DNA from: Chthoniobacterales bacterium
GTDB lineage: Bacteria > Verrucomicrobiota > Verrucomicrobiia > Chthoniobacterales > JACTMZ01
NCBI GenBank assembly: GCA_044371145.1
Contig: JBILUI010000001.1
Coordinates: forward strand, 3,497-67,496
Direction of reading: 5' to 3'
DNA length: 64,000 nucleotides
Shown: one piece after another, positions 4,522 to 62,287 of the stretch
Position numbering within the stretch: position 1 is the stretch's first letter
How the letters are laid out: each line of letters begins with the position of its first letter
Translations under genes and position numbers: made by a program
The notes under the pieces: model-generated
What the model was told of the DNA's origin: nothing
Databases searched by the model: none
What the model saw: the letters and a program-made list of their open reading frames with translations, nothing else

Positions 4522-4910
4522 GGAAGTATTCGTTTTGATGCTGTTGATGTTGGAAGAGCGGGGCGCGCCGACCGCGCACGTGGGTGAAGCCGCTCGTTGT
4601 GGTTAATGACGGAGCCGCGGCCGCGAATGGGGCACGGGCGGAGTCCGCCGGGTTTTCGGGGCGGGCCAAGGAGCCGGATTTGCGCCGCGCGAACAAAATC
4701 GCGGCGAAACCGAACAGGAGGGCGAGCCAACCGGATTTGGGGCGACCGGAATCGCAAGCTGCCTGCATCCAAGAGGATACCAGAAACATGGCCATAACCT
4801 CGAACAAGAACAACATATGGGCGGGGCAGGCCTGCGGCAATAAAGAAATCGCCGCCCCGAAGGACGGCGATGCTATTTTACTCTGTAAAGTGGGTTGTTT
4901 TGTCGCGCTT

Positions 4911-5591: not shown

Positions 5592-5632
5592 AACAACGTG
5601 TTCAACCCCGGCGACACGCTGCAGTTGCGGAT

Positions 5633-6733
5633 TTATTTGCGTGCAGCGAGACGAGCATAGAGAGCCTCAACCGTCCGCGCCTGTTGGCGTGCGTCAAATG
5701 ATGCCGTCACCTTCCCGCGCGCAGCGTGTCCTTGGGATGCTCGCAGCTCGGCGGATTGCAGATAGCGCCCGAGGACGGACGAGAAATCGTCCGCAGAACC
5801 GGGCTGCGCAGTCGATCCGCCATCACCGTCGCCAAGCAGTTCGAGGCATCCGTCGACTGCGGAAACGACGCAAGGCAAGCCGGACGCCATGGCTTCGAGC
5901 AGAATCATCGGCGTGCCTTCGTAGTCGGAGGTCAGAAGAAACACATCCGCAGCGGCGAGAACAGTCCGCGTGTCGCGAAATCCGAGCATCGCGACATTGC
6001 CGATTTTGTTTTGCGAAATGATCTCGCGCAGAGCCTGTTCTTCGGGGCCCGTTCCGGCGATGACAAAGCGCACCCCGGGGAAACGCCGTGCGATCTCGAG
6101 GAAAAGCGGCCAGTTCTTTTGAGGATGGAGGCGTCCCAGTCCGGCGACGACGAGAGATTCGGCGGGAATGCCGAGTTCTCGGCGGGCTGACATACGGACC
6201 TCGGCGCCGGCCGGGGCGAAACGTTCCGTGTCCACTCCGTTGGCGAGAAAGGAAATGCGTGCGGGATCGACGTTCTCACGCGCAATAACATCATCCCGCG
6301 TCGACCGCGAGACCGCGTAAATGTGCGAGGAGAGACGATTGGTTGCAGCATCGATCCACGTGGCGACCGCACTCCCGGTTCGCGCGCGATCGTTGCAGTG
6401 GTCGTGGTTGACGAGCGCGCGCTGTCCGCACAGTGCGGCAAGCGGTTTGCCGATCCAGTTCGAGCCGAAGAGGTGAAAATGAACCACATCGTATCGTCCG
6501 CGGCGCAGCAAGCGTGGCAGGGAAAGGAGATAGCCGGGCGGAAATTTTCCACGGGAAAGGAAATGCACGGGCACACCCTCCTTCTCCAGCGCGTCGGCAA
6601 ACACGCCGCGACCGTGCATCGGCGCCACTTCCATTTCGATGGCCGACCGGTCGCGGAAGCGGGAGAGATTGACCACCACAGTCTGCGCGCCCCCGAGATC
6701 GAGGCTGTCAATGACGTGGAGAACGCGGATCAT
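5633..6733 (-). CDS. Glycosyltransferase, GT4-like (GT-B fold)
   Basis: N-terminus MIRVLHVIDSLDLGGAQ. C-terminal donor-binding region LLTSDYEGTPMILLEAMASGLPCVVS. The ATG overlaps the upstream stop (ATGA at 6730..6733). Confidence 0.85.
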   Translation of the reverse strand: MIRVLHVIDSLDLGGAQTVVVNLSRFRDRSAIEMEVAPMHGRGVFADALEKEGVPVHFLSRGKFPPGYLLSLPRLLRRGRYDVVHFHLFGSNWIGKPLAALCGQRALVNHDHCNDRARTGSAVATWIDAATNRLSSHIYAVSRSTRDDVIARENVDPARISFLANGVDTERFAPAGAEVRMSARRELGIPAESLVVAGLGRLHPQKNWPLFLEIARRFPGVRFVIAGTGPEEQALREIISQNKIGNVAMLGFRDTRTVLAAADVFLLTSDYEGTPMILLEAMASGLPCVVSAVDGCLELLGDGDGGSTAQPGSADDFSSVLGRYLQSAELRASQGHAARGKVTASFDARQQARTVEALYARLAARK

Positions 6734-10305: not shown

Positions 10306-11423
10306 CGCGACAAAAGCGACCGAAAGATTTCGCGGTGGGCGCCGGTCCACGCGGCGGCTTCGAACTTTCTCTCCGCGCGGGCCCTTGCCGCGATGGAAGC
10401 GGCTTCGATGTTCCCCCAAAGATCCACGACCGCGGCGGCCAGCTGCCCGACCGGCGGCGTGAGCATGCGATCCCAAACGAGAGGCAACGGCAGCAGACGC
10501 GCGCAAGCTGCATCGGTCATTTCGGGAAGTCCTCCCGTTGCCGAGCCCACCACCGGCAAACCGCAGGCCAGAGCCTCAGCGACCACGGTCGGACAAGGAT
10601 CGAGATACTTCGGATGTACGAGGATATCGTGCGCGCGGTAAAGATGCGGCGCTTCTTCCTGATCGAACGCCGGTTGCAAAAGAACCGCATCGGAGACACC
10701 AAGCTCGCGCAAGTAGTCGAGAGTTTCTTCCTTTCCGCGGCGCCACTGCAGCGATCCGGCCACGGTCAGTGTGGCCGGCATGCCTTCGCGGCGAAGAGCG
10801 TGCAGCGTATCGATCGCCGCAAAGACGCGGTCGCGATAAGCATGCGTCCCCATGGCGAGAAGACGCGGGGCTGCGGGCCGCGATGCGCAGCGAGCCGGAT
10901 GAAATTTGGACAGGTCGACAGGATTGAGCAAAACCCGCGACGGTTTTTCGACCGGACCGAGAAAGCGGTTGGCCGACTTGAGGCAAAAATCGCTCTGGTA
11001 AACGATGAAGTCTGTCAAGGCACGCAGTCGCCGCATCGGCGCGTTGTGCCTCTCCGCCTCTCCGCCGGCCCAGCCCGGATAGCCCACGCCGTTCTGGTTC
11101 CAAACCACGGCGATATTTTTGCGCCGGCACTCGGCGACGAGGTCTTCCGCGAAATGCGGCGGCACACTGCTAACCAAGTAAAGAATGTTGAACTTCTCCT
11201 CGTCACAACGGAAAGCGCGTTGCAGGGAAAGAAGTTTGACCGCACCACCGCGCACCAGACGTCCGTCATCGAGAACTCCGCCGAAGCACAGCACCGGCTC
11301 CGTGCCGTCGGCTCTCCGGACGTCGCGGCGTTGCTTCTGCCACCGACGGCGGTCGGGCAAGTCGAGAACGGCGCGGAGAGCGGACTTCAACCGCCACGGA
11401 ACAATATCGGTAAAATTGCTCAT
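10302..11423 (-). CDS. Glycosyltransferase, GT4/GT1-like
   Basis: C-terminal ILVHPKYLDPCPTVVAEALACGLPVVGSATGGLPE. ATGA overlap with the upstream gene at 11420..11423. Confidence 0.85.
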   Translation of the reverse strand: MSNFTDIVPWRLKSALRAVLDLPDRRRWQKQRRDVRRADGTEPVLCFGGVLDDGRLVRGGAVKLLSLQRAFRCDEEKFNILYLVSSVPPHFAEDLVAECRRKNIAVVWNQNGVGYPGWAGGEAERHNAPMRRLRALTDFIVYQSDFCLKSANRFLGPVEKPSRVLLNPVDLSKFHPARCASRPAAPRLLAMGTHAYRDRVFAAIDTLHALRREGMPATLTVAGSLQWRRGKEETLDYLRELGVSDAVLLQPAFDQEEAPHLYRAHDILVHPKYLDPCPTVVAEALACGLPVVGSATGGLPEMTDAACARLLPLPLVWDRMLTPPVGQLAAAVVDLWGNIEAASIAARARAERKFEAAAWTGAHREIFRSLLSR

Positions 11424-13081
11424 CGTTCGATTTTGTAGAGCAGAATTGATGCCCCGACTTCTTCCACCGGTTGTTCCTTGGATAACCAGGCGAATTGGTC
11501 GTAAGCCGGAACACCGGTGCCGAGGAGCAAATTCTGCCTACTAATCGCCACCCATCCTTCGATGCGGGTGTGGGGCGGCAAGTCGATGGTTTCCGGCAAA
11601 GGAAAACGGGCCAAGCTGATTCCTTTGCTGCCATTGTAGCGGATGTTCAAGCGATCGATGTTGCGCCGCTCGCAGGCCATGGCGAGTCGGCGCAAATCCT
11701 GGCCCCAATCGAGATCGCTGTCTGCCGCGACAGCTTCCGGTTTGCTTCCGGCCAAGACGTTGAAGTAAGCGAGATAATCCGGATGCGCGGCGAACGAGGA
11801 TGCTGCGCACGAGGCGATAATGGTGATTGTGGCGACTCTGCCCAAAAGCGGATGGCGCGCGGTTTGCCAGAGCCACGCGGCACCGGCACCGGCAACCACG
11901 GCGAGCAGAGGGTAGACGGAAAGAATCTGCCGCAAGCCGTTGTGCGGGGTGAAAAAAATCCCCGCGAGAACGATCGCGACGGCAGCGAGCAAGGGAGCGA
12001 ACACCGGCCAGCAGCCGCGGACTTGCCACGACGCTACGCAGCCGGCGGCCACGAGCAGCAGAAAAGAAGCCGGCGTTTTCACAGCCAGCAGCACGGGATA
12101 AAACAACCACCATCCTTCCTTGCCTACCGAGCCGAGGAACCAAGCCAGATGACCTTCGTCGCGGCGAAAATAAACCACGTCGAACAATCCCCAGAAAAAA
12201 TCCAAAGCTGGAAGCGGCAGAGCTTGTGCCACGCTGCGCGCCGCCGGCGAGAGCGGTCCCAAACCAGCAAGGACGGACTCCAGTTCCCCGCCCGCGCCGC
12301 CCTGGAGGATCGTTCCAAAAGAAAAGCGGTAAACCGCCCAGACAGAAACAAGGCAAAAGGTCGCGGCAATCAGCAGTGAGAGCAACGCGCCACGGAGAGA
12401 AAGAACGGCAGCGCCTATTTTCGCTCCACGACGCCCGAGAAACCAAGCGAGGCAAACGGCCGCGCCTCCCGCGGCGAGGAACGCGATGGCGGAAAATTTC
12501 GCTGTGATGGCTAGCCCCGCGGATACTCCCAAGACGGCTGCGTTCATCCAGCCAGGCTGCTCGAGCCACCGGAACAAGGCGTAAAGACTGGCGGCGACCA
12601 AGGCCGCGCACGCCATGTCGAGCGAAGCCAGACCGCCATGAGCCAAGACTGGCGGGAGCAAGGTGAAGAGAAAGGTGGCGACAAGCGCCGGCATCTCGCC
12701 GGCGCAGCAACGTGTCCAAGCCGCCACGACGAGGGAAGCGAGAACGAAAAAGGGGAGGACACCGAAGCGGGCCAGAGCGAGATTGCGTTCGTAGAGACCC
12801 CCTTCGTGCAACAACGCATTCCCATCGGTCCAATGATCCGCCGCTCCGGGGATTCCGCGCAACCCGGCAAAATAAGGCCCAGCCGCCATGGCAATGCGGG
12901 CCAGTGGCGGATGGAGACGTTCATGGGTGATGCGGCCGTGCTCCCACCACTGCAAACCCGCGGCAAGATGTGCAGGCTCGTCCCACGTCTGCCAAAAGGC
13001 ATCGTAAGTGGCGATGATACGCACACACCCCAATCCCACGATCGCGCCGAGAACCAACGCATACCAAGTTTGCTTCATCAT
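11420..13081 (-). CDS. GT-C fold membrane glycosyltransferase (GT39/GT83, PMT/ArnT-like)
   Basis: Many hydrophobic segments. The first-loop acidic motif TWDEPAHL followed by HPPL is typical of polyprenyl-phosphate-sugar-dependent GT-C enzymes. The ATG at 13081 gives an ATGA overlap with the upstream stop; ORF-track start 13102 is also possible. Confidence 0.85.
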   Translation of the reverse strand: MMKQTWYALVLGAIVGLGCVRIIATYDAFWQTWDEPAHLAAGLQWWEHGRITHERLHPPLARIAMAAGPYFAGLRGIPGAADHWTDGNALLHEGGLYERNLALARFGVLPFFVLASLVVAAWTRCCAGEMPALVATFLFTLLPPVLAHGGLASLDMACAALVAASLYALFRWLEQPGWMNAAVLGVSAGLAITAKFSAIAFLAAGGAAVCLAWFLGRRGAKIGAAVLSLRGALLSLLIAATFCLVSVWAVYRFSFGTILQGGAGGELESVLAGLGPLSPAARSVAQALPLPALDFFWGLFDVVYFRRDEGHLAWFLGSVGKEGWWLFYPVLLAVKTPASFLLLVAAGCVASWQVRGCWPVFAPLLAAVAIVLAGIFFTPHNGLRQILSVYPLLAVVAGAGAAWLWQTARHPLLGRVATITIIASCAASSFAAHPDYLAYFNVLAGSKPEAVAADSDLDWGQDLRRLAMACERRNIDRLNIRYNGSKGISLARFPLPETIDLPPHTRIEGWVAISRQNLLLGTGVPAYDQFAWLSKEQPVEEVGASILLYKIER

Positions 13082-14751
13082 GCGGCGAGCAGTCCCCGCC
13101 AAAAAGAGAGAGCCGCCTCCAACGAGGGCGGACGCGACATGGCCAGAAAACTCTCCCGTTCCTCAATGGCAATACGCACCGCTTCGTCGCGGGTGCGGCG
13201 CCGTCCGTGGGAAACCCCGCCGTGAAAGACCTGATAGTAATAAGCCGTGCCTGCGGGATAGACCGGCACTTTACCTTCGAGCATTGCTTGCCAGATGCGT
13301 TGCGAGGCGAAGTTGTCGTTTTCGTCGATGATGCACGGTGTATGGCCGGAATTTGTGCCACCCGTGAAAACCAACGGACAAACCACGACAGGACTGCGCG
13401 GGTGCAACCGGCGGAAGTTCACCGCATCCTGCACAGACGAGGCGATGTGAACCGTTTCATCCGATGCATCGCGCACTTCGCCACCCGGCGGGAGCAGCCG
13501 GAAGGACGCGGCGGCGGGATCAGCGTCCGTCGAAACGACAGGCGCGGACCGGTCGGCACGAATCTCGACGCCGAGTTGGTCGAAGACTGTGCGCAGATTG
13601 CCAACCGCAGCATCAAGCGCGGGAGCGCATCCTTGGTGATGAAACAATTGGACGGCTTGCGGCAGGCGGAGCCGGGAAAATCTTTTCGCCACACGGAAAG
13701 AAAAGTCGCGCAGGCTGTCCGCGAAAGCTCGTTTGTGACAGGACGCTTTTGCCCGGAAGGATTCCATCTTCGGGATATCGTCATAGAGAGCCCGCAAGTG
13801 CCGCGACATGGCCTCGTCCGTGTGGTCCCTCCTCACTTTGTCATGCTGCGCGTCGAGCGAGGCGCCCAGAAAACCATTCTGCATGTCGCGGTGGATTTTT
13901 TCGGCGGCTTCGGATGCCGCATCGAAGAGACACGGCGCAGGGAGAATATCACGAGCCACGCCGAGCGGCGTGCTGAGGAGTTTGGTGCGCGCGGCGGCGG
14001 CCTCCATGGCCGACTGCGGCCCGCCCTCCCAGCGCGAGGGAATCAGGCAAAGGTCGCAAGCGTTGTAAAGTTCGTTGAGTTGCGGACGCGCAAGGATATT
14101 GGTCCCGAAATCGTCCCCGGGGATATCACGTCCGACAAAAGTGAAAGGGATGCTGCAGCGCTCCAGTTCCCGCCGTAGCCAGTGGCGCCGCGGGCCGGCC
14201 AGCAAGACATGAAAATTTCCTCCTTTGGCGCGGAGCCGCCGAAGGATGTCCAGCATCATCTCCGGCGACTTCTGGAGTTTGGGTTTGGCCAGGTCGCTGC
14301 CCTCGGAGTCACGGTGGAAATTGCCGATGATGTAGGTGTTTTTTGGGAGCCCGTATTTCGCCCGGACCGCTTCTTTGTCGGCGATCGGAAAAAACAAACT
14401 TCCGTCGATCGCATAGGGAACAAGGACACAAGGAAGTTGTAGATCGCGAAACTGATCCCTCGCCTCAGTCGACCTCGCCACCCACAAATCGACCAGCTTC
14501 TGACCCCAGGCAAAGGATGGTTGGGTCAGATAAAAGAAAGGCGGGTTGTCCGCCTGTGCGACGACGAAACGGCGGCGAACCACGTCCGCATGGTGAAGGG
14601 CAAGCGGCAACCAGAAAGCCGCGTGGACAACATCGCATGATCCAAGGCCCGATGCCCGTGCCTTGCCGGCCAGCGCTCTGCGGATGAGCCGCAGATCTTC
14701 ATCGATGGCCCAACCATGCTGGTCGCCCGCGGTTGTAAAATAGCGGATCAA
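13078..14751 (-). CDS. GT4-like glycosyltransferase with ~220-aa C-terminal extension
   Basis: The first ~330 aa are GT-B-like (LIPSRWEGGPQSAMEAAAARTKLLSTP). The extra C-terminal domain is of unrecognised family. TTG start forms a TTGA overlap at 14748..14751. Confidence 0.7.
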   Translation of the reverse strand: MIRYFTTAGDQHGWAIDEDLRLIRRALAGKARASGLGSCDVVHAAFWLPLALHHADVVRRRFVVAQADNPPFFYLTQPSFAWGQKLVDLWVARSTEARDQFRDLQLPCVLVPYAIDGSLFFPIADKEAVRAKYGLPKNTYIIGNFHRDSEGSDLAKPKLQKSPEMMLDILRRLRAKGGNFHVLLAGPRRHWLRRELERCSIPFTFVGRDIPGDDFGTNILARPQLNELYNACDLCLIPSRWEGGPQSAMEAAAARTKLLSTPLGVARDILPAPCLFDAASEAAEKIHRDMQNGFLGASLDAQHDKVRRDHTDEAMSRHLRALYDDIPKMESFRAKASCHKRAFADSLRDFSFRVAKRFSRLRLPQAVQLFHHQGCAPALDAAVGNLRTVFDQLGVEIRADRSAPVVSTDADPAAASFRLLPPGGEVRDASDETVHIASSVQDAVNFRRLHPRSPVVVCPLVFTGGTNSGHTPCIIDENDNFASQRIWQAMLEGKVPVYPAGTAYYYQVFHGGVSHGRRRTRDEAVRIAIEERESFLAMSRPPSLEAALSFWRGLLAA

Positions 14752-21127: not shown

Positions 21128-22087
21128 TCAACTTCCCGCAGGCGTCTTGAGGATCGGCACTTTCTTCCAACTATCCGCCTCAGTGAATTCGCGTCCGGCG
21201 AAACACCAGACAATAACTTTTTTGGAGCCCAAATAGTCTTTGTCAGCCCGTGCGCGACGGGCGAGTTGCACGCGCGAACTCGTGGCGCCGGATCCCCGCA
21301 CGCCGAGGACATCGGGCATGGAGCCGAGCGCGGCGGCCACTTGGTCGGGCAATCCGGCACCAGTGGCGTGCATGTCCCCGCCTTGGTGAAAGACGAGCAC
21401 ATGACTGTCCCCCAACAGCAGCACCGGATTTTTCTTCATCGCTTCCGGATCGGCCGGCAGGCGTTGCCCGCGCAGTTCGATCTCCTCGGGGTCGCCGCCG
21501 AGGTCGCCATTGATTGTTTGCTTCGTCCACGCAGTTCCCGCACCGCTCGCTTCGTGGTCAGCCATCCCCGCTCCTTCCAGCAAGGGCAACAGTCGATCGA
21601 CCGCCAACGCAATGCCGTGACCCGACCAATGCGTGTCGCGGCGGCAAAAAGGCTCGTATGTTGCCGAGGAGTAATCCGGAAGCAGATCAACCACGGTGAC
21701 TTTGCGGTCGGTCAGTTCGCGCATGATGGATTCCCAACCGGCGCGCATCTTCTCCTGTTCCTCCGCGGTCACTCCGGCGGCCGCGCCGGCCAGCAAAACC
21801 TTCGGCGGCACCGGCATGACGAGAAGAGTCGCATCCGCCGCCTTCATTTGCTCCGCAAAGTCGGCGATGGCATCGAGAGCGGGTTTGGTCAGATTGGCAA
21901 GGTCCGGGACGGACAGTTTGGCTGCGAACTTCAGCTCGGCTGGCAGGAATCGCCATCCGTCCTCGCCTGCGACGAAGGATTCCTTCCGCGCATCCGCTTC
22001 CCCGGCTTTCTTCTCGAGAACCTCGGCACCGCAGACCGGGAGGACGAAAACCGCCAGAAAGACTAAGGTGAGGCGGGCGAGATCCAT
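21128..22087 (-). CDS. AlgJ/AlgX-like permuted-SGNH polysaccharide O-acetyltransferase, secreted
   Basis: Signal peptide MDLARLTLVFLAVFVLPVCGA. DTHW (Asp-x-His) precedes LLLGDSHV, which is the permuted triad order characteristic of AlgX/AlgJ. Confidence 0.7.
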   Translation of the reverse strand: MDLARLTLVFLAVFVLPVCGAEVLEKKAGEADARKESFVAGEDGWRFLPAELKFAAKLSVPDLANLTKPALDAIADFAEQMKAADATLLVMPVPPKVLLAGAAAGVTAEEQEKMRAGWESIMRELTDRKVTVVDLLPDYSSATYEPFCRRDTHWSGHGIALAVDRLLPLLEGAGMADHEASGAGTAWTKQTINGDLGGDPEEIELRGQRLPADPEAMKKNPVLLLGDSHVLVFHQGGDMHATGAGLPDQVAAALGSMPDVLGVRGSGATSSRVQLARRARADKDYLGSKKVIVWCFAGREFTEADSWKKVPILKTPAGS

Positions 22088-23703
22088 TCGGCAAAATTCG
22101 GTGTTTCCAGCATCAAATCGAGATCATCCAACTCCCCGCGGTTGAGCGGATCGAGTTGCGCGGCTTGTTCGTCATAGTTGACCAAACGCACGCGCGCGCG
22201 GGCACCGGGCTGCAGGTCTGCGGCAGGCAAGAGCTGGTTGTCACGCATGGTGAATACATAAGCCAGCGCGTCGCCGTCGAGATTCTTGCCGTCGGCATCC
22301 TGCAAATCCGACAAGTGCACCGCGGTGAGGTAATCGCGGTAGGGCGTGGTGCCGGGCTTCGGCACGCGACCGAGCGCCGCCACGGTGGCGATCACCTCGC
22401 GCGGTTCGCCGGGCGGGACAATCAGAAAACTTCCGGTTTTGCCGACGTCCGCACCCGCCAACTCCACCGGAGTCCAATCGCCGCGAACCACTTCGCGCAG
22501 GGACAATTGCCAGACGAGAACATCTTTGCCCTCCAGCCAGGCCGGATCTCTGGTTGCCTCTGCCGCGAGCATCCGGCGCGCTTCGAGCGCACCGGCATCG
22601 TTGCGCGAAAGGCGATCCACCGGCGCACCGAGCCGGTGCGAAACCCGCTCGGCCAGCCCGGCCTGCGTGCCCCACCCAAGATCTTCAGACGAGTAGATGT
22701 TCGTGTAGCTGTCGCCCAACAAAAGAATCGGCGAACCCCGGTCGGGAACCCAGTCTTTGACCGGCGCGGTCAGAACGCGCTGTTTTCGCAAAATCGGCGA
22801 CACATCCGGCAACTGCAACATGCGCGCCGTGTCGCCGACCGCATCGATCTCGTCGGTCGCGGCAGGCGCCCCGGAAGTCGCAGCGCTCCCAAGTTCGCCG
22901 GCGATGGCCGCCGCGACCAGTTCCATGCCGGCAGGCGACCAATGACTGTCGCTCGCGAGATACTGCGGTTGTCCGGAAGAGAGAGCCTGCTCCCGCAACG
23001 CCTTGGATGGATCGATGACTACCGGCGCAGGTTGCTCCGGCAAACCACGGGCCAATGCTTCCTCGCTCCATGCCGCCGCAAGCAAAGCCGCGAATTCATC
23101 CCAACCCGCAGGCATCATCGCGTCGGCGTTGGTGCCACGCGCAATTTGCTCGGGATGAATCGAAGCCTTGCCGGGTGTCGGGACAAAGACCAAGCGCACC
23201 CCTTTCATTGCCAGATCCGCGGCAAAAGCGGCCAGACCACGGGCTGCGGTCTCGATCCCGCCCGAGGGCTGCAGCAACGCGTCGATATCCGGTCGGTAGA
23301 AAAGCCATCCATCGCGTCCGACATAGGCTTCTTCGCTTCCGGCACCGCCGAAGCGCAGCAGATAGTCGAGAGTGGCCGGACGCACCGCTTCGACAAGCGC
23401 CGACGAATCTTCCAGCGAAGTCTCGAAGTTCCCCATGCCCTGCAGCGCGGCGCGGTTGGCGGCGATCAATCGCTGCGGCAGCGAGGATTCCCCCTGCCAA
23501 GCACGGACCACGCCCGCAAATCCGGAAACGGCGGATTGCCGGGGATCCCGCCACGCACCGAGCAAGCCGTCGGCCAAAGGAACAATCAATAGCCCGCAAG
23601 CAAAGGCCAGCGAGAGAAAGATGGCAACCGAGCGCGACACTTCGGTGCGGCCCCAGCCTTGGGCGTAGTTGTCGCGGACAGGCGGCATGGAAGGTTGTGT
23701 CAT
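22063..23703 (-). CDS. AlgX/AlgJ-like permuted-SGNH protein with N-terminal TM anchor and C-terminal extra domain
   Basis: TM segment VAIFLSLAFACGLLIVPL. SDSHW precedes LLLGDSYTNIY. A ~130-aa C-terminal beta-rich tail could be carbohydrate-binding, as in AlgX. Confidence 0.7.
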   Translation of the reverse strand: MTQPSMPPVRDNYAQGWGRTEVSRSVAIFLSLAFACGLLIVPLADGLLGAWRDPRQSAVSGFAGVVRAWQGESSLPQRLIAANRAALQGMGNFETSLEDSSALVEAVRPATLDYLLRFGGAGSEEAYVGRDGWLFYRPDIDALLQPSGGIETAARGLAAFAADLAMKGVRLVFVPTPGKASIHPEQIARGTNADAMMPAGWDEFAALLAAAWSEEALARGLPEQPAPVVIDPSKALREQALSSGQPQYLASDSHWSPAGMELVAAAIAGELGSAATSGAPAATDEIDAVGDTARMLQLPDVSPILRKQRVLTAPVKDWVPDRGSPILLLGDSYTNIYSSEDLGWGTQAGLAERVSHRLGAPVDRLSRNDAGALEARRMLAAEATRDPAWLEGKDVLVWQLSLREVVRGDWTPVELAGADVGKTGSFLIVPPGEPREVIATVAALGRVPKPGTTPYRDYLTAVHLSDLQDADGKNLDGDALAYVFTMRDNQLLPAADLQPGARARVRLVNYDEQAAQLDPLNRGELDDLDLMLETPNFAEWISPASP

Positions 23704-23790
23704 GAAGATCGGAACATTTCTGAACCACCTTGTGCGGGGCTTGTCCTTACCTTGACCGCCACCCGCATCGGCCTAATCTTCCCGCGCACG

Positions 23791-25863
23791 ATGAGAGTTC
23801 GCACGGGATGGATCCCGCCATTTTTTCGCGGACGGGGAGCTGTATTTTGGTGGCGCTTCTCCCTGACCATAGCCGCGGCTGCCTTCAGCCTGCTTCTTAT
23901 ACTGCAACCTCCTCCGTGGCAGGTGTTGACCGATGCGGCAGGTGAAGAGTTGTCGGTAGGTCGCATTGTCTTCATCGGCACTTGGTTGGGAGGCGCGGGA
24001 GGCATCGCGATCCTTGCGTTCCTTTTCACGGTGTGCCCGTGGTGGGCCTGCGCCCCCGACCCGGCGAACCGGATTGTGGCCGCACCGCGGGCGCCGGTGT
24101 GGTTCTGGCCGGTTGTTGCGGCGGCGGTCATCGCCGCCGGTTCGATCGCGACTCCTTCACTCGGGCACAGCCTGTGGGACGACGAGCACGAGTCCCTTGT
24201 CTGGTATATTCTCGGGCGCTACGTGCGGCAGGCACCGGAGGGAAATATCAAACTCAAGGAGCACAACTGGCGCCGGACGGTTTTCGCCTACTCAACGCCG
24301 AACAACCATGTCTTCCACAACATCCTCGCGCGTTGGTCCAACGCGACCTGGCGCGCGCTTGCAGCCCCGAAGGAAAGGCAATTCAGCGAAGTGGCCCTTC
24401 GCTTGCCGGCTTTTCTCGCCGGCTTGGCCTGCGTGGCGGCTCTCGCACTTCTGCTCAAAGATTTCGGTTTGCCGGGTTCCGGTGCCTTGGCTGCATGGTT
24501 TCTCGCCCTGCAGCCGTGGTTCACCCAGCACATGGCGCTCGCGCGCGGATATGCCTTGGTCATGTTGCTCACCGTGCTGGTGCTTGTTTTTTGGCGCCGC
24601 GCCCTTGTTTCGGGCGCTTGGCAATGGTGGGCGCTGCTCGCCGCTTGCCAGTTCTTCGCGCTGTGGACTTATCCCGCCGTTGTTTTCCTCCTCGCGCTCC
24701 TCAACCTCTCCTTGGTGGCGCTCATTTTGTTCCGGCCTTCGCCGGTGAACGCGCCGGCGCGGACCTTGCTCTCCCGTTGGTTCAGTTGCTCCTGTCTGGC
24801 CGGCGCAGGCTTGCTGCCGCTGGTGTTTCCGCTCGTTCCGCAGATGAAAGACTACATGGAATCGCTCGGCGGGGGCATGATGGCCCTGCCATGGCTGGCC
24901 AATCTCGGTTCGTTCCTCGTCGGTGGCGCGGCTTGGGATCGCTCGTCCGGCAACGGCACCAGTTACCTCGATATGCAGTTGGTGGCGCGATCCTGCGGAC
25001 CCGCCGTGCTGTATGTCCTCTACGGAGGAGCGGTGCTGGTTTTTGTCATGGGGCTTATCCGCTTTTTCCGGCGCGGCAAACTCGAGGCAACCGTGGCCGC
25101 GTGCGTCGTTCTCGGCCCCGCAATGCACTGGCTTTACGCCGAGACCAAGGGGGTAATCCTTTGGGAATGGTATCTCGTCTATGTCGTCCCGTCGCTTTGC
25201 CTTTTCTGGGGAGTCGGGACAGCCGCCGTGGGACAGAGTGTTGCGCGGTTCACCCGGTCGTCTTGGCCGGGAGTATTGGCCTCCGTGCTGATTGTCGCTT
25301 TCTATGCCTACGCCGCATCGCCGGTCCGCGCCTGGCATTCGGCACACTCGCGTGTGCCTTATCGTGAGTCGACTGTGGCCGCCCGTTCCGGAGTGGACGG
25401 CGCACGGACGATCGTGTTTTCCACGACGGGGGCACCGCTGGCTTACGATCCCGCGTTGTTCTACATCGAAGAGCCGCTCGACGTTGCGATCCTCATGTTC
25501 CAGGCGGATGTCCAGCAGCGGCCCCTCGTGGCCAACATGGGACAAATGCAGAATCTGCGTGACAGTTGTCCGGAGATCTTCGCGCTGCTCGAAAGCAAAA
25601 AGCTCTTTCCCGTGGTGGAACGCTTCCCCGGATTCATGAGCGGCGGCGACCGCTTTGTCTGCCGCTACGCAGCCGGGAGCGCTGCGGCTTTCGACTTCTC
25701 CGGCATCCTCGATACGGACGAAGTGGCCTACGCGAAAAGCAAGGCTGGCATCGCACCGGAAAAGTTTTTCGCCGGACGCGGCAAGAAACATATCGCGCAG
25801 GGAGCGGGCGGTTACGGTCCCAGCCCCGGTTCCGGAAAAGAGCCTCACGGCTTCAGAAAATAA
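23791..25863 (+). CDS. Uncharacterised GT-C-like polytopic membrane protein (paralogue of 62288..>64000)
   Basis: Many TM segments. Acidic loop motif SLWDDEHE after the first helices, then PNNHVFHNIL, and a ~170-aa soluble C-terminus. I chose the ATG at 23791 (MRVRTGWIPPFF) so that it does not overlap the divergent gene ending at 23703. The ORF-track start is 23659. Confidence 0.7.
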   Translation: MRVRTGWIPPFFRGRGAVFWWRFSLTIAAAAFSLLLILQPPPWQVLTDAAGEELSVGRIVFIGTWLGGAGGIAILAFLFTVCPWWACAPDPANRIVAAPRAPVWFWPVVAAAVIAAGSIATPSLGHSLWDDEHESLVWYILGRYVRQAPEGNIKLKEHNWRRTVFAYSTPNNHVFHNILARWSNATWRALAAPKERQFSEVALRLPAFLAGLACVAALALLLKDFGLPGSGALAAWFLALQPWFTQHMALARGYALVMLLTVLVLVFWRRALVSGAWQWWALLAACQFFALWTYPAVVFLLALLNLSLVALILFRPSPVNAPARTLLSRWFSCSCLAGAGLLPLVFPLVPQMKDYMESLGGGMMALPWLANLGSFLVGGAAWDRSSGNGTSYLDMQLVARSCGPAVLYVLYGGAVLVFVMGLIRFFRRGKLEATVAACVVLGPAMHWLYAETKGVILWEWYLVYVVPSLCLFWGVGTAAVGQSVARFTRSSWPGVLASVLIVAFYAYAASPVRAWHSAHSRVPYRESTVAARSGVDGARTIVFSTTGAPLAYDPALFYIEEPLDVAILMFQADVQQRPLVANMGQMQNLRDSCPEIFALLESKKLFPVVERFPGFMSGGDRFVCRYAAGSAAAFDFSGILDTDEVAYAKSKAGIAPEKFFAGRGKKHIAQGAGGYGPSPGSGKEPHGFRK

Positions 25864-27286
25864 AATAGATAAACGGGTTGAATTTCTGCACGCCGAGCAT
25901 GAGCGCGGCGGCCCAGAATATCGCCAGGGACCAAACTGCTTTCGGCGCGGTGAGCCGCTGCGTCAAGACCAAGGTGGTCGGCCCGAACCAAACCAACGCG
26001 GCGGCCGCGGCCATGGCGATGACGAAAAGCGGCTTCCAAACCAAGCCGGCCACGAGCCCGGACAACTCCCCGACCGGCAGCAGACAAAAGAGCCGTCCGT
26101 AGTATTGCAACGCGCCGGGCAAGTCCTCGGCACGGAAGAGAACCCAAAGCAGGGAAACGACGGTGAAAGTGAGCGCCGTCTGCAGAAACGCGGGCATGCC
26201 GGACCATATGCTCCTGCCGGGCAAAGCCCGCTCCGCGGCCAGAAGAAGTCCGTGCACGCTTCCCCAGATGACGAAATTCCACGAGGCGCCGTGCCACAAA
26301 CCGCCGAGGAACATGACGATGAAAAGATTGGCGTAGGTGCGGGGCAATCCGCGCCGGTTTCCGCCGAGCGGAATATAAAGGTAATCGCGCAACCAGGTGG
26401 ACAGCGAGATATGCCAACGCTGCCAGAAATCGGTGATACTTTTTGCGCGATACGGCGAATCGAAGTTGATCGGGAAGCGGAAGCCGAGCATTAGCCCGAG
26501 ACCGATGGCCATGTCAGAATAGCCGCTGAAGTCGAAATAGATTTGGAACGAGTAAGCGAACATCCCCAGCCACGATTCGAGCACACCCGCGTCGGTCGCC
26601 CCGAAAAGTGTGTCGGCAACTTTTCCGCACGGGTTGGCTATGAGGACTTTTTTACCGAGGCCGAGCGAGAAGCAGGCCACGCCGCGGGCAAACGCCTCCC
26701 AGCTGCGATCCGGACGGCGCAGTTGCCGCGCCACGGTCTGGAACCGCACGATCGGTCCCGCAACCAGTTGCGGGAACATGGAGACATAAGCAGCGAAGCC
26801 GGCAAAGTTGCGCAGGGCACGCGCCTCGCCCCGGTAAATGTCGATGGTGTAGCTCGTCGACTGGAACGTGTAGAAGCTGATGCCCAGCGGCAGTGTGACC
26901 TCCAGAAAAAAATCCGGTTGGGCCCAGCCGATGTGCCCGGTCAACGCGCGGTAATTCTCCGCCGCGAAGTTGAAATACTTGAAGAACCCGAGGAGCGAAA
27001 GATTGGCAACGACGGATGTCCACAACGCGGCTTTCTCCGTGAAGGTGCGCTGCTCGATCAGGTTGCGCACGCGCCGGTTGCCCTCGCGCAGGAGGACCAG
27101 ACCGCAGATGTAGTCGATCACCGTCGACACCATCATGAGCAACATGAAGGCCGGATTCGCCCATCCGTAAAAAAGATAACTGAAGACCGCCAGCACCCCG
27201 AGCCACATGCGGCGCGGGGAGAGCAAGCTCACTGCCAGCGCGAGCGGCAGAAAATAAAAAAGAAACAGATGCGAACTGAAGACCAT
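25853..27286 (-). CDS. MBOAT family O-acyltransferase (AlgI/DltB-like), copy 1
   Basis: FSGYSDMAIG, FWQRWHISLSTWLRDYLYIPLGGNR, GLWHGASWNF and C-terminal FIYFIF. Its stop overlaps the convergent GT-C gene by 11 nt. Confidence 0.92.
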   Translation of the reverse strand: MVFSSHLFLFYFLPLALAVSLLSPRRMWLGVLAVFSYLFYGWANPAFMLLMMVSTVIDYICGLVLLREGNRRVRNLIEQRTFTEKAALWTSVVANLSLLGFFKYFNFAAENYRALTGHIGWAQPDFFLEVTLPLGISFYTFQSTSYTIDIYRGEARALRNFAGFAAYVSMFPQLVAGPIVRFQTVARQLRRPDRSWEAFARGVACFSLGLGKKVLIANPCGKVADTLFGATDAGVLESWLGMFAYSFQIYFDFSGYSDMAIGLGLMLGFRFPINFDSPYRAKSITDFWQRWHISLSTWLRDYLYIPLGGNRRGLPRTYANLFIVMFLGGLWHGASWNFVIWGSVHGLLLAAERALPGRSIWSGMPAFLQTALTFTVVSLLWVLFRAEDLPGALQYYGRLFCLLPVGELSGLVAGLVWKPLFVIAMAAAAALVWFGPTTLVLTQRLTAPKAVWSLAIFWAAALMLGVQKFNPFIYFIF

Positions 27287-27363: not shown

Positions 27364-29481
27364 TCAAGAACCCGGAAATGCTTCGATATAGAGATGGTGA
27401 TCGAGATCGAATGGCTCGCCGATCATGCGCTCGGACTCCAGCTCAGGGTGGTTCTCGAAACGTTCGAGGCGCATGGTGCGCCGCGTTCCCGTCCGTAATG
27501 TCTTGTTTGCTTCCGGTTCGCGCCCGTCGAGGAGGATCCATTCCGCCACGCGCACTTCGCCGTTTTCGTCGGCCACGCGTGATTCGCCAATCACGCGATA
27601 AAGATTCAGCACCAGAGCGCGACGATACGGGGCGATGTCCTCCAAAGCGGGCGGTTCGTGGCGACGGACCAGCTCCAACTCCGTCTCGGTGATCTCGGGT
27701 GCACTCCGTGCGGCGAGTTTCGCCGTGTAGAGCCGGGATTTTCTCGCGATTTCCTCGTCCGAGATTTTGCGATCGTAGACGGCCACTCCCTCGAGCAAGC
27801 CGCTCCACTGGCGATCAACCCCTCGCCACTCGTCGCCGAAGAGCAGGCGCGCGGCGTTGTTCCAGCCGGAGAGATTGCCCTCGAATTGCGGCGATTGCTT
27901 CACCATCTTGCCGTCGACGTGGCAGGTCAAAACCCCGCGACCGTAGCTTACCACCACGTGGTAAGGACGCCCCGCTTCGATCCCGCAAAGCTCAATCTCC
28001 TCGCCGCGCGGACCCGTTTCCGTGGTACGCAGGCGAAAAACCAGACGGTCGGAATTCTGACCGAGATAAAAATTGAGATCGCTCCGATCGACGGAAAACG
28101 CAACCACCCGCCGCGGCCCGAACTGTTTTGCGGAGGCAGAGGTCAGGACAAGCTCGATGCTGAAAGCATCGCTTTTCTTGATGGCGTGGTTGATCTCCTC
28201 GTCGAATCCCTCCACACGGACGGACCCGCGATGCAGCCACATTTCGTTGTGCGCCCCGAACCGGGCCTCGCCCGATGCCACGGCCAGCGCAGCGCGCGGA
28301 AAAAGATCCGCGCGCGCGGAGCGGTTTCCTGACTGGTTGTTCTCCCACAAAAAAACAAGCCCCTCATCGGACACCGGCCAGCGATCCGTCAGCGGCGGAA
28401 GCGCCGGAACAAGTGGACTGTCTTCGCCGGGGCGACTGAGGGCCGATTGATACTTGTCACCGCCTTCGATCCAGACATCGGGGTTGAATTCTGCCGCATC
28501 ACTCCGGCTGACATTGACCCACGCTTCGACCGTTGCGAAATCACGGCTGAAACGACCGATGTGTATGTCCACCTGCGGACCGCCGCCGCCGAGACGGTTG
28601 TTTCCTTTGCCTATGCTGTAAGGTCCAGTCATAACCATGAACTGTGCGTGGTTGGACCAGCGCGGATGGTAAACCTCGTAGTTGTCGACCCCCGGCGCCT
28701 TGGAAATGTCGACCTTCCAATTTCGGTTGTTGAAAAGATCGTGCATCAACAGGTTGCGGTGCCGTCCGTCGAAGGTCCACGAAAGGTAGCTGTGGTCCGG
28801 AGCCAACCCGGGCCAGCAGCCATTCGCATTGTTGGCCCACACACCGTCGGGCAGAATAGCCACCCCGGAAACCGGCCACGGCATGTTGGCCGCGATCTTT
28901 TTGCCGTCCGCCGAGACGTGCAGGCTGCCCGGCATCGTGATGTGCGTCGGCGTTTTCGTCCAAAGCGTTTCCTTGGTTTCCGGATCGTCCAACCGGAAAC
29001 GCACGATCGGTGCGGGGACAAAAGCCTCCCCGAATCTTTCCTCTTTGCCGTAGACCCAGGTTTCCCCGGTTTTCGGATCGCGCCACAGGGCGCCGGCCAC
29101 CCCGGAGGCGACATCGCGGCGTCCCGAACCGTCCCAGTTGACCACGCAAATCATGCCGCTGGAGCTGTCGGTGAAGACAACGCGTTCCCCGTCGGGCGTG
29201 ATGAGCGGCCGCATGTAACTGCCTGTCTCGCCGAGAATGGGACGCAAGCCGCGCCCGTCGCGCGAATCGTAACCCATCAGGACAAAACTTTCCCCGTAGC
29301 CATCGAGGCGCCGTCCTCCCATGACATCGCGCTGCCATACAACGCGCGTGTGTGCCCCAGTCAGCTTTTCCACCTCGCGGTCGCGCGTCGCATCGGGAGC
29401 ATCCGAAGATGCGCCCTGCTCCGCACCAAAGCAGAGCAATGCGGCAGCGAGAGCAAAAGAGACGCAGAACCTACCCGCCAT
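27364..29481 (-). CDS. Secreted beta-propeller (TolB/PD40-like) + LamG/ConA-like domain protein
   Basis: Signal peptide MAGRFCVSFALAAALLCFGA. The N-terminal half has PD40-like repeats (PLITPDGERVVFTD, SADGKKIAAN). The C-terminal region LVFRLRT...YHVVVSYGRGVLTCHVDGK...LLFGDEW...GLLEGVAVYDRKIS is LamG-like. ATG at 29481; the ORF-track GTG is at 29496. Confidence 0.65.
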   Translation of the reverse strand: MAGRFCVSFALAAALLCFGAEQGASSDAPDATRDREVEKLTGAHTRVVWQRDVMGGRRLDGYGESFVLMGYDSRDGRGLRPILGETGSYMRPLITPDGERVVFTDSSSGMICVVNWDGSGRRDVASGVAGALWRDPKTGETWVYGKEERFGEAFVPAPIVRFRLDDPETKETLWTKTPTHITMPGSLHVSADGKKIAANMPWPVSGVAILPDGVWANNANGCWPGLAPDHSYLSWTFDGRHRNLLMHDLFNNRNWKVDISKAPGVDNYEVYHPRWSNHAQFMVMTGPYSIGKGNNRLGGGGPQVDIHIGRFSRDFATVEAWVNVSRSDAAEFNPDVWIEGGDKYQSALSRPGEDSPLVPALPPLTDRWPVSDEGLVFLWENNQSGNRSARADLFPRAALAVASGEARFGAHNEMWLHRGSVRVEGFDEEINHAIKKSDAFSIELVLTSASAKQFGPRRVVAFSVDRSDLNFYLGQNSDRLVFRLRTTETGPRGEEIELCGIEAGRPYHVVVSYGRGVLTCHVDGKMVKQSPQFEGNLSGWNNAARLLFGDEWRGVDRQWSGLLEGVAVYDRKISDEEIARKSRLYTAKLAARSAPEITETELELVRRHEPPALEDIAPYRRALVLNLYRVIGESRVADENGEVRVAEWILLDGREPEANKTLRTGTRRTMRLERFENHPELESERMIGEPFDLDHHLYIEAFPGS

Positions 29482-29499
29482 ACAGGAAGCCGTCACGAA

Positions 29500-30432
29500 T
29501 TACGAAAGCGCTGTCAGCCAGTCCGGCGCGGGAAAACGTTTTGCCCCGCCGCGCACGGCCAACCCGACGGCGGCGCGCATAGTCCAGAACGTGCGCACCC
29601 CGCGATGGCGGCAGGCGGAGAGCAGAGGACCGACGATGTCCCAGCAATTGAACCACACCGCTTCGTTGACCGCTTTTTCGAACAATATTCTCTCGTCGCG
29701 CGGCAATTCCGAAGGCCACGGCACGCCGTGCGAAACGCACCATTCCGGCAAGGCGAGGCGCGAGCGCAATCCGTTCCAGATGCGCTTCGCATCCATCTTC
29801 CCCGCGGAGACCGGACGCCATGTTTTGTCGAGGACAATCTCCGGGTGGTAGGCGCAACGCTCGACGAGCCCGGCTTTGATCCAGTAGTCACGATCTTCCA
29901 TTGGCTCGTAACCGGGAACAAAACCGCCGATGCGCACGTGCAACTCGCGTCGGATGACAGCCGAGCCGGGCGTGATGACCGCGCAACGCCAGTAGTTGCG
30001 CAGTGCGGGTAGCGGCGGGTCGCCTTCCGCATAGTTGTAGCCACTGGTGCGCGGCTCGGACGGCGGTTTCTCCCGGACTAGCACCATACCGTAAGCGACA
30101 CCTGCGTTCCCGGCCTCCGCCGCACGCACCAAGGCCGACGGCCCGGCAGGCAGCAAAATGTCGTCCGCATCGAGGAACAAAATCCATTCTCCGGAAGAAT
30201 GCTCCACCCCGATGTTGCGCGCGCGGGATACACCGCCGTTTTCCACCAGGAGATAGCGGATCTTGTCACCGAAGCCAGCGCAGATCTCGGCCGTATTGTC
30301 CGTGCTTCCGTCATCGACCACGACAATCTCGCGGGCTGATTCCTCGAGCCGGAGACAACTGGCAATGGTCGCCGGAAGAAACTCTGCCGCATCGTGGGCG
30401 GGGATGACGATGCTGAGAGAGGGTATTGGCAC
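29500..30432 (-). CDS. Glycosyltransferase family 2
   Basis: LSIVIPAHDAAEFL, VVVDDGSTDNT and FLDADDIL motifs. GTG start. Confidence 0.88.
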   Translation of the reverse strand: MPIPSLSIVIPAHDAAEFLPATIASCLRLEESAREIVVVDDGSTDNTAEICAGFGDKIRYLLVENGGVSRARNIGVEHSSGEWILFLDADDILLPAGPSALVRAAEAGNAGVAYGMVLVREKPPSEPRTSGYNYAEGDPPLPALRNYWRCAVITPGSAVIRRELHVRIGGFVPGYEPMEDRDYWIKAGLVERCAYHPEIVLDKTWRPVSAGKMDAKRIWNGLRSRLALPEWCVSHGVPWPSELPRDERILFEKAVNEAVWFNCWDIVGPLLSACRHRGVRTFWTMRAAVGLAVRGGAKRFPAPDWLTALS

Positions 30433-30460
30433 GGGACGTTCGATCTGCTACATACGCTTA

Positions 30461-31273
30461 ATGAAGGATCTAGTGCCCTTGCCGCTGCGACAATTTTTCG
30501 GCAGTGTATGCACCGATTGGAAGGCGCGGCGGCAGAAAGAACGCCTGCTGGCGGCGCTGCGGGGTGATGCGGTGCAGTGCAATGTGTGCGGGTGGCAGGG
30601 CGCTCGGTTTGCCGATGACCGGTGGCATAGGGAAACAGTCTGTCCGGTGTGCCGCCTGCAGGTGCGCCATCGCATGCTGGCGGCGCTGCTCGACGGCCTG
30701 GCTGATATCGATAAGACCGACGAATCTTCGCTGCTGGGAGGAAAGGACGTGCTGCATTTCGCGCCGGAGAGACAACTGAGTGAGAGATTCAGAAAAACAG
30801 CGCGCAAACATGTCACGGCGGACTTCGACCGCAGCGACTGCGACTTGCGGGTGAACATGAGTTGCATGCCGGAGGTCGCGGACGCTTCTTTCGACACTGT
30901 CATTGCCTGCGACGTGCTCGAGCATGTTCCGGACGACATCGCCGCCATGCGCGAATTGCGCCGTATTCTGCGAAGCGATGGCTTAGCCCTAGTCACGGTT
31001 CCGCAAAAAGACTCGCCGTCCGAGACTGACGAGGATTCTTCCGTCACGGATGAAGCACAGCGGATTGCGCGCTTCGGCCAGAAGGATCATGTGCGTATGT
31101 ATGGCGATGATTTTGCGGAGCGTCTCGAGTCAGCCGGATTCAGGGTGCGGGTGATCTCGGCGTCCACTTTTTCGAGCGCGCAAGTTGAGCGTCATGTGCT
31201 GAAACCGCCTTGGCCCAACCCCCACCCTTTGGCCACCAACCAGCGCCGTATCTATCTCGCGCTGGCCGTTTAG
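30461..31273 (+). CDS. SAM-dependent methyltransferase (type 11-like) with N-terminal CxxC..CxxC zinc ribbon
   Basis: CNVCGW...CPVCR, then VLHFAPE and ACDVLEHVPDDIAAMRELRRILRSDGLALVTVP. I chose the ATG at 30461 (MKDLVPLPL). The ORF-track start 30263 lies inside the divergent GT2. Confidence 0.8.
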   Translation: MKDLVPLPLRQFFGSVCTDWKARRQKERLLAALRGDAVQCNVCGWQGARFADDRWHRETVCPVCRLQVRHRMLAALLDGLADIDKTDESSLLGGKDVLHFAPERQLSERFRKTARKHVTADFDRSDCDLRVNMSCMPEVADASFDTVIACDVLEHVPDDIAAMRELRRILRSDGLALVTVPQKDSPSETDEDSSVTDEAQRIARFGQKDHVRMYGDDFAERLESAGFRVRVISASTFSSAQVERHVLKPPWPNPHPLATNQRRIYLALAV

Positions 31274-60391: not shown

Positions 60392-60411
60392 GAGGGTTAT
60401 TCTCTTACAAA

Positions 60412-62084: not shown

Positions 62085-62287
62085 CTTATAGGGCACGATT
62101 TCAGGAGCTTCAAGAAAAAATGAAATAATTGATACGCCCACGCACCGGTTTATCGAAGTGGGAACGAGAATCCTAAAGCTGTTGCCTTTGCCCTTGCCCG
62201 GCCGCGCGGAGAATTGCCTGATGGTCTTGTGCGGCGGTGGAGCCTCAACAGAATCCTACTGGGAGCGGGATTCCCGGAAAAACAACA

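Follow-up and report, generated by a model that had tools for sequence, protein, structure and literature searches.

In a 64,000-nucleotide stretch of a Chthoniobacterales genome (contig JBILUI010000001.1; the whole stretch is referred to as the window, and all positions are counted along it), two plus-strand genes, copy 1 (23791..25863) and copy 2 (62288..>64000), encode polytopic membrane proteins whose assignment to the GT-C fold class of glycosyltransferases is supported by structure modelling. Both are members of a single divergent family of uncharacterised sequences, whose enzyme class is well known. We consider it moderately probable that both are inner-membrane glycosyltransferases using a polyprenyl-monophosphate-sugar donor and a periplasmic acceptor, likely the polysaccharide of the locus in which they lie. 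It is the sequence family that is new; the kind of enzyme, and in all likelihood its mechanism, is already known.

The plus-strand open reading frame (ORF) 23659..25863 was confirmed, and translation from the ATG at 23791 gives a copy 1 protein of 690 amino acids (aa). Its start is uncertain by 13 codons because a metagenomic ortholog (P0001, 98% identical) was called 13 codons longer, which corresponds to a TTG at 23752. The frame of copy 2 remains open up to the window edge (571 codons). The complete copy 2 protein of 653 aa was taken from P0055, encoded on a contig of a near-identical strain (L007; 99.84% nucleotide identity across window positions 60283-64000). P0055 differs from copy 2 by two substitutions in 571 shared residues, and the gene is expected to end near 64249. 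On sequence grounds the copies are certainly true paralogs, since BLASTP aligned them at 37% identity over 547 aa (E 3e-100), far beyond chance, with the motifs in the same order. The shared runs on which the first-pass annotation of this DNA had based the paralogy (SLWDDE, PNNHVFHNIL, RLPAF.AG, ARGY.LV, WQWW and WTYPAV.F) were all found, in that order, in the alignment, and copy 2 also retains the C-terminal YD.

An AlphaFold2 model of copy 1, built from 54 homologs, had a predicted local distance difference test score (pLDDT) of 89.4 and a predicted template modelling score (pTM) of 0.90. It comprises about 13 hydrophobic helices, a structured loop at residues 126-199 and an alpha/beta domain at ~520-660, in agreement with the many transmembrane (TM) helices and the soluble C-terminal domain predicted earlier. 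When the model was compared with the PDB using Foldseek, the first 19 matches were all GT-C structures (probability 1.0, E 8.9e-8 to 7.6e-3), with STT3 (6ezn_F, E 8.9e-8) at the top. The GT-C structures matched were yeast and mammalian STT3, ALG12, PglB, ArnT, AftA, AglB, DPY19, EmbA/B, Pmt4, AftB and ALG9; unrelated transporters appeared with E above 0.07 and probability below 0.2. The only Pfam signal came from PMT_2 (PF13231), the model behind automatic 'GT39/GT83 family' annotations. Over residues ~180-307, copy 1 reached 22.9 and copy 2 25.5 bits, just below the gathering threshold of 26.1 bits, and some family members carry a precomputed PF13231 hit. A profile search of the PDB returned nothing besides a weak segment of STT3A (E 0.02-0.05, residues 220-314). 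Together these results bear out the GT-C reading of the first-pass annotation; neither a non-glycosyltransferase membrane family nor a cytoplasmic WDDE loop, the refuting outcomes it had named beforehand, emerged.

Conservation was evaluated over 151 representatives, each from a different 50%-identity cluster. D131, E132, R252 and G421 are 100% conserved, and N172, H173, R204, P242, W243, Y254, R329, Y552 and D553 are at least 90% conserved. The proposed catalytic Asp of GT-C enzymes follows the first TM helix (PMC11127046). Here D131 and E132, which belong to the WDDE motif, directly follow a TM helix, two further TM helices lying upstream of it, and the first large loop begins at these two invariant residues, as the suggested GT-C catalytic position would have it. 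R252 of the ARGY motif is located in the model at the outer end of a later TM hairpin, and in a weak profile alignment ARGY falls at the position of the luminal SYDNE motif of STT3A. For a 13-TM model with the N-terminus inside, the positive-inside count (K+R) was 14.2 in seven short cytoplasmic loops versus 4.3 in four short periplasmic loops. Because this count and the STT3A alignment of the neighbouring ARGY loop both point there, we infer an N-in, C-out topology in which the WDDE loop, R252 and the C-terminal domain are predicted to face the periplasm.

The Y552-D553 pair would thus sit in the periplasmic alpha/beta C-terminal domain. Modelled alone, this domain had a pLDDT of 90.9. It was rejected as a recognizable carbohydrate-binding module (CBM), its best matches being methyltransferase-like Rossmann folds (TM-score 0.2-0.37, E 0.08). 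The last ~22 residues of copy 1 (669-690; window 25795-25860; AQGAGGYGPSPGSGKEPHGFRK) have a pLDDT below 50, suggesting disorder, yet the ortholog P0003, at 63% identity, has nearly the same tail (AQGTGGYGPAPGVGKEPHHFRK), for which no role is known.

Within the GT-C class, the two copies fall outside the established groups as tested here: they stay below the PMT_2 threshold, they match neither the PMT domain (PF02366) nor the MIR domain of GT39 (E up to 1), they have neither the WWDYG motif nor the acidic loop of GT66, and they match no curated ArnT model, NCBIfam having given no match for either copy at E up to 1. PF02516 was likewise unmatched in a Pfam search with the window copies. The earlier description of the proteins as uncharacterised holds, as the family is without an NCBIfam model and its relatives are mostly 'hypothetical'. 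The relatives returned by word-indexed searches (54 and 38) are nearly all without a name, apart from a few distant ones that automatic annotation calls GT39 or dolichol-phosphate mannose (Dol-P-Man) protein mannosyltransferase. A hidden Markov model scan of 1.84 billion representatives found 770 clusters (50% identity) at E<=1e-30 and 3025 at E<=1e-10; at E<=1e-3 the number rises to 12,716, and the family blends into the wider GT-C superfamily.

Among GTDB species genomes, 219 stretches encode relatives, and the 78 loci listed from these underlie all locus and neighbour counts given here. Every one of the 78 comes from an uncultured organism (metagenome-assembled genomes and one single-cell genome). 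Chthoniobacterales, Terrimicrobiaceae and Verrucomicrobiae predominate, with some Myxococcota or 'Deltaproteobacteria' and single Pirellulales and Spirochaetales bins. Two to five family copies occur within 10 kb in 19 of these loci, and the genome of the closest copy 1 ortholog (63%) has further family copies, ~40% identical to copy 1, on a different contig (L010, L014).

When all likely genes up to 6 kb away from the family gene were clustered, the commonest specific neighbour was a 262-aa GT2 (13/78 loci), followed by a 362-aa dehydrogenase (8/78) and other GT-C-like proteins (7/78). In 11 of the 78 loci the GT2 and family genes share a strand and are no more than 1.6 kb apart, and a uridine diphosphate (UDP)-xylose synthase is present in 6-8. 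The best PDB match of the GT2 is Dol-P-Man synthase (5mlz, 2.3e-15), and its best NCBIfam matches (Dol-P-hexose transferase, PpgS, AglJ and PgfS) are all polyprenyl-phosphate glycosyltransferases. The dehydrogenase passes the NCBIfam cut-off for a bifunctional UDP-4-keto-pentose/UDP-xylose synthase (358 versus 294 bits); its score against the ArnA model, 340 bits, is strong yet below that model's cut-off. In Chthoniobacter-type loci (L001, L011, L012, L016 and L065) the order is GT2, synthase and family gene, sometimes two of the latter, and the set is divergent from a helix-turn-helix-cupin regulator and adjoins LamG, MBOAT and AlgX genes. In Verrucomicrobiales-type loci (L062, L063, L069 and L078), as well as in L038 and L086, the GT2 gene is followed by the family gene after a gap of a few bases. 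By analogy, this gene order supports the logic of Gtr/Arn-type three-component periplasmic glycosylation with a polyprenyl-monophosphate sugar donor, and it supports a pentose as the donor sugar in the five Chthoniobacter-type loci.

Other recurrent neighbours were set aside. ABC ATPases occur near the family gene in 15 of the 78 loci; those adjoining it in about 10 loci are MlaF accompanied by MlaE, or a TOBE-type importer ATPase, and probably reflect lineage synteny and not a flippase. The other recurrent clusters with a Pfam match (among them UvrA, RlmN, tetratricopeptide repeat proteins and a methyltransferase) were attributed to housekeeping synteny. In seven loci from Terrimicrobiaceae- and Verrucomicrobiae-type genomes (L018, L019, L020, L022, L028, L030 and L073), the family gene directly follows MlaE (PF02405, 1.8e-74), an unknown 280-aa gene and an MlaF-like ABC ATPase, the MlaE-MlaF-family stretch spanning ~7400-9930 in L020. 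This adjacency possibly indicates a link to outer-membrane lipid homeostasis, or again lineage synteny. A different, conserved trio is also found near family genes, composed of a PgpA-like phosphatase, a UbiA-family protein and a 484-495-aa polytopic PMT_2-like protein. It is located at 10542-13783 of L007, that is in the continuation of the window contig ~8-11 kb past 64000, and at 14044-17433 of L001. For its UbiA protein, NCBIfam gave decaprenyl-phosphate phosphoribosyltransferase as the best match, below the cut-off (E 1e-21). With a PgpA- in place of a HAD-type phosphatase, the three genes resemble a variant of the three-component polyprenyl-phosphoribose (pentofuranose) system described in PMC11127046.

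In the mechanism that we propose, a polyprenyl-monophosphate-sugar donor would be made on the cytoplasmic face of the inner membrane and then flipped. R252, N172 and H173 would hold its phosphate-sugar head group while D131/E132 would activate the acceptor hydroxyl, and the sugar would pass to a periplasmic acceptor, most likely the polysaccharide built by the GT2 and GT4 enzymes of the locus and exported via Wzm/Wzt. The polymer may additionally be O-acylated in the periplasm by the adjacent MBOAT/AlgX-like module. In the relatives, the donor would be made by the Dol-P-Man-synthase-like GT2, often together with the UDP-4-keto-pentose/UDP-xylose synthase, and in at least some family members the transferred sugar is probably a pentose carried on a lipid phosphate, in a three-component scheme of the Arn/Gtr type. 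As to the window copies, it is their position inside the Wzm/Wzt polysaccharide locus that points to the acceptor. For copy 1, further support comes from the AlgX/MBOAT synteny, which is conserved in 63-98% identical orthologs, and from the occurrence of the module near ~45%-identical family genes.

Several observations weigh against this proposal. The structural matches are distant (TM-score 0.35-0.43, 10-14% identity), so that the family is far from every solved GT-C, and the best of them are oligosaccharyltransferases, not monosaccharide transferases. The isolated C-terminal domain has no significant match in the PDB (best E 0.08) and gives no acceptor clue, and the clustering of D131, E132, R252 and Y552/D553 in one site is assumed. 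An informative neighbour is lacking in 65 of the 78 loci. The three-component argument is founded on relatives that are only 30-47% identical, because the window encodes no homolog of their Dol-P-Man-synthase-like GT2, UDP-xylose synthase, UbiA or PgpA; no GT2 of the window has C-terminal TM helices or resembles a polyprenyl-phosphate glycosyltransferase. As candidate donor synthases we rejected the GT2s at 9316, 15724, 20225, 29500, 43002, 44304 and 49304, which look like ordinary chain-building enzymes, and the DesI-GT2 fusion at 55385, whose GT2 part is of the chain-building type without C-terminal TM helices. No flippase was recognised in the window either.

A more far-reaching explanation, which we regard as less likely than not, is that the family constitutes the transferase arm of an undescribed pathway of Verrucomicrobiota and Myxococcota, in which the synthase and the GT2 would yield a polyprenyl-phosphate pentopyranose (e.g. 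xylose) and paralogous GT-Cs would build or branch a pentose-rich extracytoplasmic glycan. The paralogs, up to five in tandem per locus, would then share one lipid-linked donor as Emb and Aft share decaprenyl-phospho-arabinose, and copy 1 would work together with the AlgX/MBOAT/LamG module around it.

The rank of STT3 and PglB as the best structural and sequence matches instead brings to mind en-bloc oligo- or polysaccharyl transferases, similar to PglB and other oligosaccharyltransferases or analogous to the WaaL ligase, which would move the polyprenyl-diphosphate-linked, Wzm/Wzt-exported polymer onto protein or lipid. P0045, a member of the family, carries a precomputed Pfam match to STT3, and among the window ORFs checked there is no other polytopic ligase or polymerase candidate, those that are polytopic or have a membrane Pfam match being the MBOATs, AT3, Wzm and the GT-C-like proteins. 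We nevertheless find such an activity unlikely: the motif WWD[YWF]G is absent from both copies and from all 151 representatives, an invariant Arg stands where STT3 has its second acidic, metal-binding loop motif, and the partner that recurs beside family genes is a synthase for monophosphate-linked single sugars. Moreover, up to five family genes occur in tandem, and such multiple copies are unusual for ligases.

GT39 PMT enzymes carry a 'DE' motif in their first loop, and the invariant Asp-Glu of the family resembles it. Protein O-glycosylation, in which the copies would transfer a polyprenyl-phosphate sugar onto secreted or membrane proteins, would also agree with the weak PMT_2 matches, the automatic GT39 and Dol-P-Man protein mannosyltransferase names of distant relatives and the similarity of the partner GT2 to Dol-P-Man synthase. 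For copy 2 a candidate substrate is at hand in a neighbouring 1060-aa beta-propeller/Ig protein, as the gene for this large secreted protein is convergent both with copy 2 and with a 71%-identical ortholog of copy 2. This explanation, too, appears improbable in view of the missing PF02366 and MIR matches, the ranking of Pmt4 and Pmt1/2 below STT3, ALG12, PglB, ArnT and Aft in the fold search, and the location of both copies within a polysaccharide locus, copy 1 being wedged into the AlgX/MBOAT acylation module. The gene in question, of ~1060 aa, lies ~45 bp from copy 2 (L007:4397-7579, minus strand) and from the ortholog (L008:12016-15213, minus strand). Its product apparently starts with a signal sequence, resembles a beta-propeller in one region on visual inspection and matches Ig-domain Pfam models faintly; it could be a substrate or a case of coincidental synteny. 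Finally, non-catalytic scaffold or lipid-binding subunits similar to PIG-U of the glycosylphosphatidylinositol transamidase, whose chains are among the weaker Foldseek matches (ranks 20, 21 and 25; E 0.04-0.09), are very hard to reconcile with the strict invariance of D131, E132 and R252 at GT-C catalytic and donor-binding positions and with the tight operon coupling of the relatives to a lipid-phosphate-sugar synthase.

Compared by analogy with characterised systems, the polyprenyl-monophosphate-dependent glycosyltransferases that we propose functionally most resemble the ArnT- and GtrC-type GT-Cs of three-component systems, including the GT136 pentofuranose system. Like ArnT (GT83; Foldseek 5ezm, E 5.2e-5, TM-score 0.35), they have the GT-C fold, 13 TM helices and a small C-terminal domain placed in the periplasm. 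The relatives also reproduce the succession of the Arn pathway (ArnA C-terminal domain, ArnC, ArnT), from a UDP-glucuronic acid decarboxylase over a polyprenyl-phosphate GT2 to a GT-C. On the other hand, the likeness is at the fold level only: there is no NCBIfam ArnT match, PMT_2 remains sub-threshold, the family has its own motif set (WDDE, PNNH, ARGY and YD), and its context is a polysaccharide locus, not lipid A modification. Since no aminotransferase, formyltransferase or deformylase is encoded in the operons of the relatives, the expected sugar is a neutral pentose or 4-keto-pentose in place of 4-amino-4-deoxy-L-arabinose.

Supplied by a dedicated lipid-phosphate-sugar synthase encoded nearby, a GT-C can modify O antigens of ABC-transporter-dependent pathways once these have been polymerised and exported (PMC11127046). 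In the GT136 pentofuranose system of Citrobacter youngae, the GT-C (ORF12) has 11 TM helices and a C-terminal beta-rich CBM (Kelly et al. 2024, PMC11127046). The family shares with GtrA/B/C and GT136 systems the ABC-transporter-dependent glycan locus, seen here, and the lipid-monophosphate-sugar synthase partner, seen in relatives. It differs in that the partner synthase is absent from the window and a flippase was not recognised. Its ~13 TM helices and alpha/beta C-terminal domain without a PDB match set it apart from the architecture described for GT136.

STT3, PglB and AglB (GT66) provide the best structural matches (6ezn_F, 6gxc, 3waj) and the only sequence similarity in the PDB, and their 13-TM, N-in, C-out architecture with a C-terminal extracytoplasmic domain is also predicted for the family. 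However, TM-scores are ~0.4 at 12-14% identity, R252 takes the place of the acidic SYDNE/DxD loop of STT3, the C-terminal domain is much smaller (~140 aa), and the partner genes point to monosaccharide donors. The mycobacterial Emb and Aft enzymes likewise have the GT-C fold (8if8, 9.5e-5; 7bvf; 9dlh) and several, often adjacent paralogs per genome, which may share one lipid-linked pentose donor. The family proteins, in contrast, are much smaller and lack CBM-type C-terminal domains, and the donor route in the relatives would run from a UDP-sugar through a GT2, not from phosphoribosyl pyrophosphate through UbiA, although a separate UbiA-PgpA-GT-C trio is located nearby in L001 and L007. Likeness to GT39 PMT enzymes is limited to the Asp-Glu pair in loop 1.

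Both copies belong to one very large glycan-biosynthesis locus of roughly 58 kb, reaching from ~5.6 kb to the right window edge. It encodes several GT4 and GT2 glycosyltransferases in addition to GT9, GT61 and GT47-like enzymes. Modification genes include S-adenosylmethionine-dependent methyltransferases, two sulfotransferases, DesI-like aminotransferases, a NeuD/PglB-type N-acetyltransferase, a FabH-like protein and an AT3 acyltransferase. Candidates for periplasmic acylation are three MBOATs, two AlgX-like SGNH proteins and one LamG protein, and a Wzm/Wzt ABC exporter is present. The features closest to the two copies are listed below.

Features of the two family genes and their surroundings in the window (motif positions are residues of copy 1)
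Feature	Position	Strand	Description and evidence
Copy 1	23791..25863	+	predicted GT-C-fold membrane protein, 690 aa, ~13 TM helices; AlphaFold2, Foldseek and conservation
Copy 1, WDDE	129-132
Copy 1, PNNH	170-173
Copy 1, RLP	204-206
Copy 1, ARGY	251-254
Copy 2	62288..64000	+	first 571 of 653 codons of the paralog, cut at the window edge; BLASTP, PMT_2 25.5 bits
AlgX-like SGNH protein	21128..22087	-	Pfam ALGX 3.2e-15; N-terminal TM/signal segment
AlgX-like SGNH protein	22063..23703	-	Pfam ALGX 7.3e-22; N-terminal TM/signal segment
MBOAT	25853..27286	-	Pfam MBOAT 2.9e-36; convergent with copy 1
LamG/ConA-like protein, single TM	27364..29496	-	Pfam Laminin_G_3 6.3e-16
Wzt-type ABC ATPase	53881..55101	-	Pfam ABC_tran 4.5e-24; L008 ortholog has a Wzt_C domain
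Wzm-type ABC-2 permease	60456..61313	-	Pfam ABC2_membrane 1.2e-23; ~1 kb upstream of copy 2
Putative winged-helix (MarR/GbsR-like) regulator	61569..62141	-	190 aa; PDB 1ku9 (MJ223) E 1.5e-14

The AlgX-like pair is divergent from copy 1, an arrangement kept in orthologous loci (L003, L004, L009 and L010; 63-98% identity), and the AlgX-AlgX-MBOAT-LamG module is also found near ~45%-identical family genes (L001, L011, L012, L014, L016 and L065). The Wzt ATPase marks ABC-transporter-dependent glycan export and could provide the route of the presumed acceptor polymer to the periplasm. As first noted, both copies run against a locus that is almost wholly on the minus strand; only 4584..5660 and 30263..31273 are further likely genes on the plus strand. 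Horizontal insertion of the copies was rejected, as their guanine-plus-cytosine (GC) contents of 0.625 and 0.58 do not contrast with the flanks.

Two further assignments of the first-pass annotation fared less well. The protein divergent from copy 2 is plausible as a regulator, but not proven as one: its match is to the winged-helix protein MJ223, and no Pfam model was matched. It shows synteny in L007 and also adjoins the copy 2 ortholog in L008. The membrane protein at 11420..13102 is indeed unlike the copies, and kinship with the family was rejected (hhalign probability 0.3%), but it is not the 'classic' GT39/GT83 member it had been taken for, with a PMT_2 score of 25.0 versus the required 26.1 bits. 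Encoded on the minus strand, with nine strongly hydrophobic segments and no NCBIfam match, it represents a third divergent GT-C candidate of the window.

Further genes bear on the nature of the glycan. Besides 25853-27286, MBOAT genes are found at 32409-33818 and 47879-49273, all on the minus strand. The AlgX-like pair (21128-23703) accompanies the first, and the partners of the others, 31270-32412 and 46845-47870, encode proteins of 341-380 aa with an N-terminal TM segment and no Pfam match, which may be unrecognised acyl-transfer partners. Together with the AT3 acyltransferase gene at 19148-20218, the three MBOATs imply several distinct O-acylations of the glycan. Sulfotransferase genes at 42193-43239 and 45501-46175 (minus strand) suggest a sulfated polysaccharide; the segment 44001-46000 has the lowest GC content of the window (0.518 versus about 0.60). 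The minus-strand gene 55385-57493 encodes a 702-aa fusion of a DesI-like sugar 4-aminotransferase (DegT family, 1.5e-107) and a GT2 domain (residues 410-579) that resembles the chain-building GT2s TuaG and EpsE, not lipid-phosphate glycosyltransferases. Between this fusion and wzm, a FabH-like beta-ketoacyl-ACP synthase III is encoded (58215-59261, minus strand; 197 bits, below the cut-off of 249), which may supply an unusual acyl group for an amino sugar.

Surface-glycan diversity is set by glycosylation steps outside the cytoplasm, many of which are catalysed by GT-C enzymes. The class is still growing, with GT136 founded as a new family in 2024 (PMC11127046). For the window itself, the gain is modest: two predicted periplasmic glycosylation steps are assigned to a large locus whose glycan is probably methylated, sulfated and acylated, because methyltransferase, sulfotransferase and O-acyltransferase genes are present. 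For the relatives, the operons of UDP-xylose synthase, GT2 and GT-C offer a directly testable route to a lipid-linked pentose donor. In a limited literature search we found no bacterial description of such a donor, and the literature on UDP-4-keto-pentose with undecaprenyl and on GT-C enzymes in Verrucomicrobia yielded nothing specific to the family. The family has a clear signature (WDDE, PNNH, RLP, HPW, ARGY and the C-terminal YD) and falls under current Pfam and NCBIfam thresholds. One characterised member would make it possible to annotate a whole group of membrane proteins now listed as 'hypothetical' in Verrucomicrobiota of soil and fresh water.

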